Virus record (IMG/VR): IMGVR_UViG_2563366831_000011
Coordinates: 1 to 50,364 of that record
DNA: 50,364 nucleotides
Source: a virus
Taxonomy: Duplodnaviria > Heunggongvirae > Uroviricota > Caudoviricetes
Reading direction: 5' to 3' (one strand)
Each line of letters begins with the position of its first letter. The stretch's first letter is position 1. Shown one piece after another: positions 1-42,273 of this stretch. The notes beneath the pieces are model-generated. The model was not told where the DNA came from. It was given only the letters and a program-made list of their open reading frames with translations, and made no database searches. The position numbers and the translations under genes are program-made.

Positions 1-933
1 ATGGACAACGACAAAATTGATCAACACAGCGACGAAATTGAAGTTGAGAGCGAAGAAAAAGAGCGCGGCAAAAAAATAGAAATAGATGAAGATCGACTCC
101 CCTCCCGGGCGATGGCAATTCATGAGCATATCCGCCAGGATGGTGAAAAAGAGCTGGAACGCGACGCAATGGCGCTACTGTGGTCAGCCATTGCGGCGGG
201 TCTGTCGATGGGCGCTTCGCTACTGGCAAAAGGGATATTTCATGTCGAACTGGAAGGAGTGCCAGGCAGCTTCTTACTGGAGAATCTCGGTTATACCTTT
301 GGTTTTATTATCGTCATTATGGCCCGCCAGCAATTATTTACCGAAAACACCGTGACTGCGGTACTACCCGTCATGCAAAAACCGACAATGAGCAACGTCG
401 GCTTACTTATGCGATTATGGGGCGTCGTGCTGCTGGGTAATATTCTCGGGACAGGTATTGCTGCATGGGCATTTGAATATATGCCTATCTTCAATGAAGA
501 AACTCGCGATGCATTTGTCAAAATCGGCATGGATGTGATGAAGAACACCCCCAGCGAGATGTTTGCCAACGCGATCATTTCCGGCTGGCTGATCGCCACT
601 ATGGTTTGGATGTTTCCTGCTGCGGGTGCGGCAAAGATTGTGGTGATTATATTGATGACCTGGCTTATTGCACTGGGTGACACCACCCACATCGTTGTCG
701 GTTCTGTTGAAATCCTCTATCTGGTGTTTAACGGCACGCTGCACTGGAGCGATTTCATCTGGCCCTTCGCACTACCTACTTTAGCGGGGAACATCTGCGG
801 CGGCACCTTTATCTTCGCGTTAATGAGTCATGCACAGATTCGTAACGACATGAGCAACAAGCGTAAAGCAGAAGCACGCCAAAAAGCAGAACGTGCGGAA
901 AACATTAAGAAAAATGATAAAAACCCAGCATAA
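1..933 (+). CDS. yfdC: Inner-membrane formate/nitrite transporter (FNT) family protein
   Basis: 310-aa ORF starting at window base 1; multiple hydrophobic segments; recognised from memory as E. coli YfdC, which lies next to argW. Confidence 0.8.
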   Translation: MDNDKIDQHSDEIEVESEEKERGKKIEIDEDRLPSRAMAIHEHIRQDGEKELERDAMALLWSAIAAGLSMGASLLAKGIFHVELEGVPGSFLLENLGYTFGFIIVIMARQQLFTENTVTAVLPVMQKPTMSNVGLLMRLWGVVLLGNILGTGIAAWAFEYMPIFNEETRDAFVKIGMDVMKNTPSEMFANAIISGWLIATMVWMFPAAGAAKIVVIILMTWLIALGDTTHIVVGSVEILYLVFNGTLHWSDFIWPFALPTLAGNICGGTFIFALMSHAQIRNDMSNKRKAEARQKAERAENIKKNDKNPA

Positions 934-1008
934 ATGGCGAGGGTTTAAGCAATCGAGCGGCAGCGTACTTACCCCGCAGTCCATTAGCGGGTATACTCAT
1001 GCCGCATT

Positions 1009-1083
1009 GTCCTCTTAGTTAAATGGATATAACGAGCCCCTCCTAAGGGCTAATTGCAGGTTCGATTCCTGCAGGGGACACCA
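1009..1083 (+). tRNA. argW: tRNA-Arg (anticodon CCU)
   Basis: 75-nt sequence GTCCTCTTAGTT...GGTTCGATTCCTGCAGGGGACACCA folds as a cloverleaf by eye; anticodon loop CT-CCT-AA; ends in CCA. Confidence 0.9.
1069..1083 (+). repeat. attL core: 15-bp direct repeat CTGCAGGGGACACCA (tRNA 3-prime end)
   Basis: Identical 15-mer recurs at 48661..48675; integrase lies immediately inside. Confidence 0.65.
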
Positions 1084-1178
1084 TTTATCAGTTCGCTCCC
1101 ATCCGTACCAGTCCGTAAAATCCCCTGAATATCAAGCCTTCCGTAGATTTACAGTTCGTCATGGTTCGCGTCAGATCG

Positions 1179-3452: not shown

Positions 3453-3770
3453 TTAAATAATAGAATTATCAGAACGAACATCGCAGATAGTAAATGTCAC
3501 GACGCCGATGACAGTAACATCGTCCAGGGCTTCACCCTCGATCACTTCGCCATCTTCGGTAATAAGTGATCTTCCTCTCAGCTTGGCAAGCTCCGTCCCG
3601 CCGCCATGCTGTATAAGCAGTTGGCTACCCTGCTTTGGCTTCAGGGAGATATCTAGTACAACGTAACCACCAGATCGCTCGAAAACTAGCGTGTTTGGGC
3701 CGACATTGCAGATCGAGTTAACAGACAACCTTTGCTCGACGTAGTCCGTCGCTGGTGAAGGGAATCCCAT
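3453..3770 (-). CDS. Hypothetical protein, second gene of an SOS-box operon
   Basis: 105 aa from the internal start MGFPSP; its ATG overlaps the upstream stop as TAATG (translational coupling); no family recognised. Confidence 0.5.
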   Translation of the reverse strand: MGFPSPATDYVEQRLSVNSICNVGPNTLVFERSGGYVVLDISLKPKQGSQLLIQHGGGTELAKLRGRSLITEDGEVIEGEALDDVTVIGVVTFTICDVRSDNSII

Positions 3771-4009
3771 TAGATCACCCTCCCCATGTTGGCCATCATC
3801 CACAGGCGGTTTTCACTATGCTCTGCCGTTTTATCGATGAAGTAAGACTGCTCGCGAGCGATCCAGGCGTTAGCCTCCACCTCGGAAAAGTGAATGCTAC
3901 GCCGGCGCAGCGCGGTAATGAAGTCGCGGGTGTGAAGGTACTGGAACCCCTTAGAACTGCGCAATACCGACTCGCGGAATGCCTGATTGATGTCTGACTG
4001 TCGATGCAT
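3770..4009 (-). CDS. Hypothetical protein, first gene of an SOS-box operon
   Basis: 79 aa from MHRQSD; GGAGG Shine-Dalgarno 7 nt upstream of the ATG; LexA box immediately upstream. Confidence 0.5.
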   Translation of the reverse strand: MHRQSDINQAFRESVLRSSKGFQYLHTRDFITALRRRSIHFSEVEANAWIAREQSYFIDKTAEHSENRLWMMANMGRVI

Positions 4010-4026
4010 GTCTTCCCTCCGATAAA

Positions 4027-4046
4027 TACTGTTTTTATATACAGTA
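4027..4046 (-). promoter_or_regulatory. LexA (SOS) box TACTGTTTTTATATACAGTA
   Basis: Matches the CTGT-N8-ACAG consensus with flanking TA/TA; sits 18 nt upstream of the 3770..4009 start codon, overlapping the likely -10. Confidence 0.6.
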
Positions 4047-4080
4047 GTTTTATTAGAAGGGAAGCTCAAGTGGTTGACAA

Positions 4081-6913: not shown

Positions 6914-8209
6914 TTACCACTCGATATGCACAATGCCATCGGCGCCATCGCCGGACGGGTAAGCTATTCCGCTGAAATCAATATCGTAAGCACCACCACC
7001 GCCAGAGCCTGCTGCTTTCCCTTTCACACCGCCGGTTGCGCCGCTGCGTCCTCCGCCACCCCAGAACGAAGCCCCGCCAGAACCGGTAAGCATGTTGGTC
7101 GCAGCCTGGCCGTCATGACCAGTGCCACCCTGAATGTTGATATCGCCACCTGACGCAACACCGCCATCACCACCGGCGCTGTTCACGATGCTGGCCTTGT
7201 TGGATTTTTTTCCACCGCGGCCGAAGATGATCCCACCCAAAGAAGAGTCACCGCCGTCATTGCCCGATACGGCACCTAAAACCGCTGCACCGCCTTTGCC
7301 GACGACAACGGATAAGGTCGTTCCCGGGACAACGTCCAGCCAGCCTAAAGCTGTACCGCCAGCCCCGCCACCGCCACCGCTATAGGACTCACTTGAGGAG
7401 GACGCCTGACAACCGCTTCCGGATCCGCCTGCACCCGTCACGGTGTAACGAATGCGCGTCACCCCTGCAGGCACGACGAACGAATACGTCCCGTTGACTG
7501 CGTAAGCGATGTTTCCGTGAGGCTTCGAAAGGGAGGTTACGTTGGTTCCATCGGAGTGGATTTGCGTAACCGTTCCTGGCTTGCTGACAACTGTTGCGCC
7601 CGCCGCCCTGGTACTTAACTGAACGTAGTAAGCGCTGCCGGTGCAGTTATTTTCGATGGTCCAGTCTTTCACCCATGGAGGGAGATATAGGATCCGGTTA
7701 CCAGTTAGCGCGCCGGTGAGAATTAGCCGTGGGTTAGCAGCCTGCAGATCGGTGGCGTTAACGTTAGCCGTCGATATTGAAATGCTGGCCGCTCCGCATC
7801 CCCATGAAGGCATCCAGCCAGATGCCGTTGCATCGGTTTTTTCCGGTGCGGTGTTATTGGAGTCAATGGTGTTGAGCCACGACACCGAGTAATCGCTGGA
7901 AGGGATCACCGCACCTTTAGGGTAGCCTGAAATTGCTGTTCTGAAATCTGCGTTAAAGGGGTACCCCATCCCGGCATCCGACCATTGCAGGCGAGTGTAA
8001 AGATCATTAAAAATGCCGTTAAAGTCCTGACCCTTTGGCGGCTTACCGCCGGCAGAAAGTGCGATACGGGTCAGCGGCGGGAAACCGGAATCCATAGCCG
8101 CCAGGCCGTCGGCCAGCGTTTCAGAGGTGGAATTGACCGGGATCGTGTTTTTGTCGCCGCTCGCAGAAAATACAACCGTCAGACGTGACGGTATGGCTGA
8201 ATTATTCAA
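6914..8209 (-). CDS. Tail fibre protein with glycine-rich C-terminal domain
   Basis: 431 aa; C-terminal Gly-rich domain (GGGGGAGGTALGW...GGKGG...AYDIDFSG) paralogous to 2410..3441; follows the baseplate I-like gene. Confidence 0.7.
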   Translation of the reverse strand: MNNSAIPSRLTVVFSASGDKNTIPVNSTSETLADGLAAMDSGFPPLTRIALSAGGKPPKGQDFNGIFNDLYTRLQWSDAGMGYPFNADFRTAISGYPKGAVIPSSDYSVSWLNTIDSNNTAPEKTDATASGWMPSWGCGAASISISTANVNATDLQAANPRLILTGALTGNRILYLPPWVKDWTIENNCTGSAYYVQLSTRAAGATVVSKPGTVTQIHSDGTNVTSLSKPHGNIAYAVNGTYSFVVPAGVTRIRYTVTGAGGSGSGCQASSSSESYSGGGGGAGGTALGWLDVVPGTTLSVVVGKGGAAVLGAVSGNDGGDSSLGGIIFGRGGKKSNKASIVNSAGGDGGVASGGDINIQGGTGHDGQAATNMLTGSGGASFWGGGGRSGATGGVKGKAAGSGGGGAYDIDFSGIAYPSGDGADGIVHIEW

Positions 8210-33494: not shown

Positions 33495-33570
33495 TGGTGC
33501 TGTTTAACGGACTTGAACCGCTACCCATTCGCTTACAAGGCGACCGCTCTACCATTGGAGCTAAAACAGC
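33495..33570 (-). tRNA. tRNA-Thr (anticodon UGU), phage-encoded
   Basis: 76 nt; perfect 7-bp acceptor stem, 4-bp D stem, anticodon loop CTTGTAA, T-loop TTCAAGT, discriminator A then CCA (folded by eye). Confidence 0.75.
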
Positions 33571-33575
33571 ATGTT

Positions 33576-33650
33576 TGGCGGGACAGCGTGGACTCGAACC
33601 ACGATAAGAAGGTTAACAGCCTTCCGTAATGACCTTTATACGACTGACCC
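33576..33650 (-). tRNA. tRNA-Asn-like (anticodon GUU), possibly degenerate
   Basis: 75 nt; 5-bp anticodon stem with loop CTGTTAA, T-stem and TTCGAGT loop, terminal CCA; one mismatch each in acceptor and D stems. Confidence 0.45.
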
Positions 33651-40571: not shown

Positions 40572-41288
<717 letters not shown>

Positions 41289-41415: not shown

Positions 41416-42273
41416 ATGAAGAAAGCAGCAATTTTAATTGATGCGGGTTTTTTCATGCAGCGTGTTCATGCTACGCATCGTAAACACTTCGCCGAGCATG
41501 AACTGACTGCGCAATGCATAATGAAAGTAATATGGTCAATGGTTCTTTCCCATCTTAATGGAAAACGTCAATCACAAGAACGTAGGGAACCGCTTGAGCT
41601 TTATAGAATTTACTTCTATGACTGTCCACCACTCGACATTCAAACACGCCTTCCACTTCCTGAGCATGGCAATAAGACGCCTGGTCGCAAGAATTTCAAA
41701 CTCGAAAAATCATATATTCTGAGAACGGAGCTGCATGAAGAGTTAAGAAAAACTCGAAAAACAGCCTTAAGATTAGGGAATCTTGTTGATAATAAGCGAT
41801 GGCAACTAACTACATTCTCCCTTGATGCTCTGATGAAAGGAACGAAAAAATGGGATGAACTGACAAATGATGATTTTTACTATGACATCAAACAAAAACA
41901 AGTTGATATCAAGCTAGGGATGGATATCACGACTTTAGCTTATGAAAAACTTGTTGATGTAATTGTCCTTGTTGCTGGGGACTCAGACTTTGTGCCTGCC
42001 GCCAAACACGCCAGAATTAAAGGTATTGATTTTATTCTTGATCCACTAAGACAGAATGTTACCCCATCACTGTCAGAGCACATTGATGGAGTTCAGTCAT
42101 ACAGCTTGATATCAGGACTTGCCGATGCTTTACATGTTGAGCCAGACCCGGCACCTGACTGGTGGGAAGATCGAAAAAAAGGCAAGCCTAGAGGAAAAAA
42201 CAATAGCGGTAAACGCAGGTATGGAAACACTCAAGCTGAGTCTGCAAAGAAACATCAAAGAAATAAACGATAA
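41416..42273 (+). CDS. NYN/PIN-like putative ribonuclease in the rex slot
   Basis: 285 aa; N-terminal AAILIDAGFF and VIVLVAGDSDFVPAAKHARIKGIDF match NYN-domain acidic motifs; basic Lys/Arg-rich C-terminal tail; same strand as cI, upstream of oL/pL. Confidence 0.55.
   Translation: MKKAAILIDAGFFMQRVHATHRKHFAEHELTAQCIMKVIWSMVLSHLNGKRQSQERREPLELYRIYFYDCPPLDIQTRLPLPEHGNKTPGRKNFKLEKSYILRTELHEELRKTRKTALRLGNLVDNKRWQLTTFSLDALMKGTKKWDELTNDDFYYDIKQKQVDIKLGMDITTLAYEKLVDVIVLVAGDSDFVPAAKHARIKGIDFILDPLRQNVTPSLSEHIDGVQSYSLISGLADALHVEPDPAPDWWEDRKKGKPRGKNNSGKRRYGNTQAESAKKHQRNKR

Follow-up and report, generated by a model that had tools for sequence, protein, structure and literature searches.

Why should a prophage carry a canonical SOS operator and two small, tightly coupled genes inside its tail-fibre region? 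The question is raised by IMG/VR record IMGVR_UViG_2563366831_000011, a caudoviral sequence of 50,364 nucleotides (nt) that was analysed over its whole length and is referred to here as the window. In it the first-pass annotation had described a LexA box, a GGAGG Shine-Dalgarno sequence and a 79-amino-acid (aa) open reading frame (ORF1) whose stop codon overlaps, as TAATG, the start of a 105-aa open reading frame (ORF2), and all of these lie exactly where it placed them, on the minus strand (Table 1). Its reading, a canonical SOS box that covers the promoter of two tightly coupled genes, was likewise borne out, the box being exact, unique in the window and conserved in its arms among relatives. 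Its statement that neither protein matches a recognisable family fails for ORF2, which belongs with UmuD′ and phage HumD proteins. The cassette is a HumD-type orphan UmuD′ module, very probably LexA-controlled, and orphan, LexA-boxed UmuD′ genes are already known in phages P1 and N15. The identity and the regulation of the cassette can be assigned with high confidence. Overall, the explanation that we favour, with moderate confidence, is that it provides an SOS-induced, pre-activated UmuD′ mimic together with a partner protein, acting via host UmuC and RecA.

The operator provides the first line of evidence. The 50 kb window has a single copy of the exact pattern TACTGT-N8-ACAGTA, which appears in none of 100 dinucleotide shuffles, and the shorter pattern CTGT-N8-ACAG is also matched perfectly by this one site. 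When two mismatches were allowed, matches in the window did not exceed chance (mean 1.0 per shuffle); therefore only the exactness of the box is informative. The box is identical at 20 of 20 positions to the umuD operator of E. coli K-12, and the same box sequence is given for both umuD and sbmC in Table 4 of PMC3009722. The similarity extends well beyond the box. Upstream of umuD in E. coli K-12 the order is ATTGATAGCC, TTGATCTGC, 14 nt, TACTGTATATAAAAACAGTA and, 27 nt on, the ATG, and the cassette promoter is colinear with this arrangement, including the ATTGATAGCC and TTGATCTGC blocks. In an alignment of ten upstream regions, comprising E. coli umuDC, the window, Klebsiella, Escherichia and Cronobacter phages, an IncX3 plasmid and three metagenomic viral contigs, identical blocks appear in identical order in all ten. 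This promoter and operator alignment points clearly to umuDC as the ancestry of the operon. TTGAGC and TACTGT were assigned as the −35 and −10 hexamers because of their spacing and their homology to the umuDC promoter, and LexA would thus be expected to cover both the −10 element and the transcription start. With its box placed over this predicted promoter, the cassette qualifies as a putative member of the LexA (SOS) regulon. Translation signals are similarly compact: the sequence GGGGAGGG, within the final codons of ORF1 (AAC ATG GGG AGG GTG), provides the ribosome-binding site for ORF2.

These features are maintained across related loci. Among 80 viral loci from IMG/VR that contain ORF1, collected by a scan of viral contigs, the CTGT and ACAG arms of the box are perfect in 60 and carry one mismatch in 9, while the 8-nt spacer between them occurs in 16 variants. 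The −35 hexamer TTGATC, which is also that of E. coli umuDC, is located exactly 17 nt upstream of the box in 55/80 loci; the sequence 5′ of the −35 is unrelated between loci and thereby marks the edge of a mobile cassette. The Shine-Dalgarno sequence of ORF1 is kept as GGAGGG or GGAGG, and the 4-nt overlap between the two reading frames (TAATG, TGATG or TAGTG) is retained in approximately 73 of the 80. Both reading frames are under purifying selection, with ratios of nonsynonymous to synonymous substitution relative to the window of 0.155 for ORF1 (73 loci) and 0.086 for ORF2 (66 loci), and both are genuine genes. One sub-lineage within this sample (about 11/80, for example those with upstream sequence GGGTATCCCTACCGCGACATTTATCGGAGGG) has GC-rich sequence in place of the −35 and the LexA box and keeps the Shine-Dalgarno sequence and both ORFs, and a further six to seven loci show ACAG changed to CCAG in the box; expression of such box-altered copies may have escaped from LexA control or been weakened in it.

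What, then, does the operon encode? ORF2 matches the PHROGs family phrog_3469, 'UmuD-like protein' (E-value 2.8e-46), as well as phrog_811 (5.2e-11), and aligns with the NCBIfam HumD profile (4.6e-13) over residues 1-101 of the protein and 1-121 of the 129 profile positions. The match to the UmuD′ structure 1i4v in the Protein Data Bank (PDB; 1.4e-5) begins at Gly25, tblastn of ORF2 reaches P1 humD and N15 gp26, and the fold, an S24-type β-fold, also supports the assignment. The start of the protein, M-GFPSPATDYVEQR, aligns with UmuD 25-37 such that residue 2 falls on Gly25. Gly25 is the first residue after RecA-assisted self-cleavage of UmuD, and ORF2 would therefore be 'born processed' in the manner of P1 HumD. 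When ORF2 was aligned with UmuD, HumD, N15 gp26 and two coliphage relatives, a 12-residue deletion corresponding to UmuD 57-68, which includes the nucleophile Ser60, was evident both in ORF2 and in its close relatives. The position of Lys97 is variable among seven divergent short forms, while the N-terminal arm MGFPSPAxDxxE is invariant in these seven, and the arm is invariant in 32 homologues as well. ORF2 is thus no self-cleaving S24 peptidase, since the Ser60 region is deleted and, with no residues before the glycine, there is no cleavage site. On these alignments ORF2 is a UmuD′/HumD homologue that is pre-truncated and devoid of the catalytic serine loop. The UmuD′-like family as a whole is large, comprising 1847 clusters at 90% identity in a family profile search.

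A separate feature of this family concerns its C-terminus. UmuD′-like proteins of phages and plasmids end in an acidic tail with a terminal Pro-Val-Ile, for example ...SGEFDDCPVI in P1 HumD and ...EDDDDYPVI in Klebsiella phage P7641; E. coli UmuD is without it, and the tail of ORF2 (...VRSDNSII) is a degenerate version. The C-terminal tail of SSB (DFDDDIPF) is similar, and the acidic Pro-Val-Ile tail may be a partner-docking motif.

ORF1 has a much narrower range. It matches phrog_3893, a family of unknown function (8.3e-39), and sequence searches against Pfam, NCBIfam, PADLOC and the PDB returned no match. An exhaustive search of 1.8 billion representatives yielded only 74 cluster representatives at 50% identity, and every cluster looked up was from Enterobacterales. 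Its AlphaFold2 model (predicted local distance difference test score 90.2) shows the order H-b-b-H-H-b-b (H, helix; b, strand), from which we are confident in predicting a winged helix. Its third helix (EVEANAWIARE) carries a net negative charge, an uncommon property in helices that recognise DNA. The isoelectric points of the two proteins are opposed, approximately 10 for ORF1 and 4.5 for ORF2, and this difference in charge, along with tight coupling and fixed adjacency, suggests that ORF1 forms a complex with ORF2. ORF1 is partnered with short as well as long UmuD′-like forms. We had considered a small SOS protein of the DinI/ImpC type, as encoded ahead of some umuD homologues, as another identity for ORF1, and rejected it given that Pfam revealed no DinI-family domain at E<=1 and that the predicted order of elements is that of a winged helix. 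Searches of the literature returned no work on ORF1 or on the short UmuD′-like form. Many NCBI and UniRef records of the ORF1 family (for example P0308, P0314, P0345 and ORF33 of Erwinia phage Midgardsormr38) are named 'DNA polymerase V'; they have no similarity to UmuC or UmuD, and the label looks like a name transferred from the neighbouring gene.

Among known systems, the closest precedent is P1 HumD, together with its counterparts in P7, N15 (gp26), phiKO2 and HK639. Like ORF2, these are orphan, pre-truncated UmuD′ homologues starting M-GFPSPA, encoded in an accessory region of a temperate phage that lacks umuC, with a LexA box about 20 nt upstream. In the P1 record a LexA binding site is marked 20 nt upstream of humD, and HumD is described with the words 'functionally complements E. 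coli UmuD′'; N15 gp26 is preceded by TACTGTATAAAAAAACAGTT. A passage of PMC11541004 cites McLenigan et al. 1999 for HumD. There are also clear differences. ORF2 and HumD are 35% identical; HumD proteins are 128-129 aa long and keep the active-site loop, with the serine retained in P1, whereas ORF2 has 105 aa and is without 12 residues including Ser60. Furthermore, P1 and N15 have no 79-aa gene upstream, unlike the cassette described here. A comparison with E. coli umuDC is equally instructive. The two share an identical LexA operator, colinear −35, −10 and upstream blocks, and a homologous UmuD C-terminal domain, but the cassette lacks umuC and the 24-residue UmuD pro-peptide, its catalytic loop is deleted, and an unrelated 79-aa reading frame separates the promoter from the Gly25-equivalent start.

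The full layout, consisting of the box, the Shine-Dalgarno sequence, an ORF1 of 79-80 aa and an adjoining MGFPSPA... gene, was found in phages of Escherichia (mEp390, Flotzy, HK140), Klebsiella (P7641), Cronobacter (phiES15), Erwinia (Midgardsormr38) and Pantoea (AH07), in which the identity of ORF1 to that of the window drops to 28-51%. The ORF1/UmuD′-like pairing is also present at four Enterobacter genome loci. Among 5426 complete E. coli genomes, 161 contain the cassette, and a single genome may hold up to four of them. In the phages, homologues that span the whole module include HK140_027/028, Flotzy CDS0036/0037, phiES15_051/052 and Midgardsormr38 ORF33/34, all annotated just as hypothetical proteins or by name transfer, and literature searches found no functional study of any whole-module homologue. 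The operon of mEp390, Flotzy and HK140 has a DinI-like gene as its divergently transcribed neighbour, the two together making a small SOS island beside attP in these E. coli HK022-like phages; in mEp390 ORF1 itself is unannotated and a spurious ORF on the opposite strand is annotated in its place. In some other genomes the C-terminus of ORF1 is fused to fragments of a serine invertase (the resolvase-domain end or HTH_7) and the UmuD′-like gene is missing (P0117, P0118 and P0019; loci L013, L018, L050 and L054; Escherichia phage vB_EcoS-733R5). Here the cassette appears to have undergone recombination, at the ...MANMGR / ...MAEMERE junction, with a tail-fibre invertase gene of the cin/gin/pin class.

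Plasmids carry the module as well. Searching plasmids with ORF1 by tblastn returned 969 records, mostly of conjugative IncX3 plasmids, in which a 34%-identical ORF1 is preceded by TACTGTATATGCATACAGCT and followed by a UmuD′-like gene of the long type (MGFPSPATDY...) that is usually cut by IS26. The pairs annotated as 'DNA polymerase V' and 'S24 family peptidase' in the IncX3 backbone (examples are NZ_MN565271.1 and CP067528.1) are homologues of the entire module. Most IncX3 plasmids have it interrupted by ISKox3 and IS26; in those carrying blaNDM, ISKox3 replaces the promoter and the LexA box and IS26 truncates the UmuD′-like gene, and the 'delta-umuD' of these plasmids is therefore what is left of a two-gene operon. 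Similar pairs are found on an IncFIB Salmonella plasmid and on Citrobacter and Pantoea plasmids. The UmuD′-like form of HK140, IncX3 and IncFIB is long, of HumD length, in contrast to the short form of the window.

Taken together, the best reading of the cassette from its sequence is a self-contained, SOS-inducible accessory cassette, or 'moron', descended from a umuDC-type operon. In an uninduced lysogen, host LexA bound to the umuDC-identical operator overlapping the −10 would keep the operon off; upon DNA damage the removal of LexA would derepress it along with host umuDC, and ORF1 and ORF2 would be translated as a coupled pair. Because ORF2 has lost the Ser60 loop, it would need no activation and could not cleave itself. 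Its likeliest action would then be to supply an already active UmuD′-like subunit to the host UmuC/RecA* machinery, and translesion synthesis on damaged phage or host DNA could begin without the slow step of UmuD cleavage. Basic ORF1, made in fixed proportion with acidic ORF2, would probably be the binding partner or adaptor of the latter. During lytic growth the cassette may also be expressed by read-through from the late operon. Of these steps, the use of ORF2 with host UmuC and RecA* for DNA polymerase V (Pol V), which we draw from homology, is put forward tentatively, as a possibility in near balance with its opposite.

Several observations weigh against this explanation. The HumD score of ORF2, 49.2 bits, is below the curated equivalog cut-off of 120, which marks it as part of a divergent subfamily rather than an equivalog, and Pfam Peptidase_S24 is not matched at E<=1. 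ORF2 is without 12 residues that UmuD′ keeps, and may accordingly have lost UmuD′ activity. No umuC gene was found next to the module in approximately 15 neighbourhoods inspected, nor anywhere in the window, so any Pol V role depends wholly on the host gene. The LexA box is lost in 11/80 of the sampled loci. Finally, HumD is active without ORF1 in P1 and N15, so the conserved presence of ORF1 hints at a role beyond the supply of UmuD′.

Some of these same features would fit the main alternative, in which ORF2 with ORF1 binds host UmuD, LexA, the C-terminal domain of cI or the RecA filament, as a modulator of SOS and RecA* or a dominant-negative decoy, so that SOS functions or mutagenesis are tuned or shut off and Pol V is not activated. 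The deletion of the catalytic loop in ORF2, the absence of umuC from every neighbourhood inspected, the DinI-like RecA modulator gene that lies divergently beside the operon of mEp390, Flotzy and HK140, and the additional, conserved ORF1 are all consistent with such a role. In addition, UmuD/UmuD′ heterodimers form preferentially. Nevertheless we consider this function unlikely: the invariant arm GFPSPAxDYxE is a hallmark of UmuD′ and HumD that is absent from cI and LexA, and the relative HumD is annotated in the P1 record as complementing UmuD′. There is, similarly, a small chance that ORF1 and the non-catalytic UmuD′-like protein constitute a two-component SOS effector that serves mobile elements in a role other than Pol V. 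For example, the winged-helix and S24-fold dimerisation subunits could make up an uncleavable regulator resembling LexA or cI, or a decoy for RecA* or UmuD, and after the sensing of damage this complex could reset the SOS response, turn it to another end or regulate nearby prophages.

A third function, that of a LexA-controlled antirepressor acting in trans, had been proposed in the first-pass annotation. Like 186 Tum, Gifsy GfoA/GftA or N15 AntC, ORF1 or ORF2 would then bind the repressor of a phage, so that this prophage or another in the same host is induced. The resemblance is one of logic. In 186 tum, Gifsy dinI-gfoA/gftA and N15 antC, as here, small proteins are made from a LexA-repressed promoter outside the immunity region, and the antirepressor operons are likewise paired with an SOS-protein paralogue, DinI in that case and UmuD′ in this one (PMC3121763). 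Moreover, the fold of ORF2 is that of repressor C-terminal domains, and some E. coli genomes hold as many as four copies of the cassette. However, no sequence relation to these operons was detected. ORF1 has neither a Pfam Ant nor a DinI domain, and its 56 tblastn records in a phage collection (E<=1) are all of the same family, none of them from N15; the collection includes N15, and with it AntC, and the presence of 186 and Gifsy records in it was not checked. The prophage's own repressor is of the lambda type and self-cleaving, with its cleavage site and dyad intact; the module is frequent on IncX3 and IncFIB plasmids, and the stretches of these plasmids that were inspected had no annotated repressor of the prophage cI type; and the ancestry of the operon is umuDC. 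An antirepressor is therefore improbable. The other earlier proposal, an SOS-induced toxin-antitoxin or anti-phage defence pair, would suit an overlapping two-gene operon with an uncharacterised ORF1 at a prophage accessory position, but is extremely unlikely given that PADLOC was negative for ORF1, ORF2 and the upstream gene, that the folds (a winged helix and a UmuD′-like β-fold) are not toxin-like, and that the umuDC ancestry is clear. Hence the cassette is probably neither an antirepressor nor a toxin system. Nor does homology reveal ordinary tail-fibre chaperones, the outcome that had been named in advance as speaking against an SOS cassette; it reveals UmuD′-like and winged-helix proteins instead.

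The setting of the operon in its prophage is that expected of an HumD-type accessory module. The first 1100 nt of the window (1-1100, yfdC and tRNA-Arg) are 100% identical to E. coli strains, identifying the host as E. coli, and umuDC is present in the E. coli K-12 reference. The prophage is integrated at argW with its integrase gene at 1209-2405, and the cassette is one gene away from this int end, between a 225-aa gene without an assigned function and a glycine-rich, tail-fibre-like gene of 343 aa; the tail-fibre region was thus correctly named as its location. Finding an SOS cassette there had been called unexpected, which overstates the case, since P1 humD and N15 gp26 have boxes of their own and UmuD′-like genes are frequent at the end of many lambdoid phages that holds the tail-fibre genes and the attachment site (att). 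Many relatives have no further gene between the cassette and att/int, and its position is the usual lambdoid site for accessory genes.

Table 1. Features of the cassette and of the adjoining gene in the window
Feature	Position	Strand	Basis or remark
Intergenic spacer, 71 nt	4080..4010	−	between the stop of the upstream 225-aa gene (4081) and the ORF1 ATG
−35 hexamer TTGAGC (predicted)	4064..4069	−	17 nt 5′ of TACTGT; colinearity with umuDC
−10 hexamer TACTGT (predicted), left arm of LexA box	4041..4046	−	spacing and umuDC homology
LexA (SOS) box TACTGTATATAAAAACAGTA, palindromic 20-mer	4027..4046	−	exact consensus; identity to E. coli umuD operator
Shine-Dalgarno GGAGGG for ORF1	4015..4020	−	5 nt before the ATG at 4009
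ORF1, 79 aa	3770..4009	−	ATG at 4009
ORF2, 105 aa	3453..3770	−	ATG within ATCTAATGGG at 3770, overlapping the ORF1 stop as TAATG
Tail-fibre-like glycine-rich gene, 343 aa	2410..3441	−	Gly_rich_2 domain; tail-fibre PHROGs

The tail-fibre-like gene starts 11 nt past the stop codon of ORF2, and a terminator scan revealed no terminator-like site on the minus strand after that stop, the sole minus-strand site being located inside ORF1. Given this short gap and the absence of a terminator-like site, the gene could be co-transcribed from the SOS promoter. RothC and many E. coli prophages have it after the cassette; in many others it is absent and att/int directly follows, so that it is not a conserved part of the module. 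The C-terminal Gly_rich_2 domain of its product resembles the C-terminus of a 431-aa protein encoded at 6914-8209. On the other side, the scan detected no terminator-like site in the interval that separates the upstream gene from the cassette promoter, which makes read-through of the late operon into the cassette possible.

The first-pass annotation was also correct that this prophage has a RecA-cleavable cI. The repressor gene (40575-41288) encodes HTH_3 and Peptidase_S24 domains, with an AG cleavage site and a Ser/Lys dyad that are both intact, and its product is presumably near-identical to lambda cI. Just after it, at 41416-42273 on the plus strand, a 285-aa protein with an NYN nuclease domain (Pfam, 6.8e-9) and weak PADLOC matches to HEC-09 and NYN holds the place that rexA/rexB have downstream of lambda cI, and may be a defence gene expressed in the lysogen. 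The prophage further includes genes for tRNA-Thr(tgt) and tRNA-Asn(gtt) at 33495-33650 on the minus strand.

Orphan, LexA-controlled copies of UmuD′ on phages and plasmids are a known and little-studied possible route by which mobile elements may influence SOS mutagenesis, and such influence bears on the evolution of antibiotic resistance. The present analysis shows a large UmuD′-like subfamily that is without the protease loop, has a promoter and operator scarcely altered from those of host umuDC and is consistently preceded by a conserved, apparently uncharacterised 79-aa winged-helix gene. The module is widespread among Klebsiella prophages and also in the backbone of IncX3 plasmids that encode carbapenemases. 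Its significance lies mainly in the linked, uncharacterised ORF1 and in the missing catalytic loop. If ORF1 were no cofactor of Pol V or of the SOS response, the locus would be an ordinary HumD-type accessory gene; if it is such a new cofactor, it would extend a classic pathway in a modest yet genuine way.

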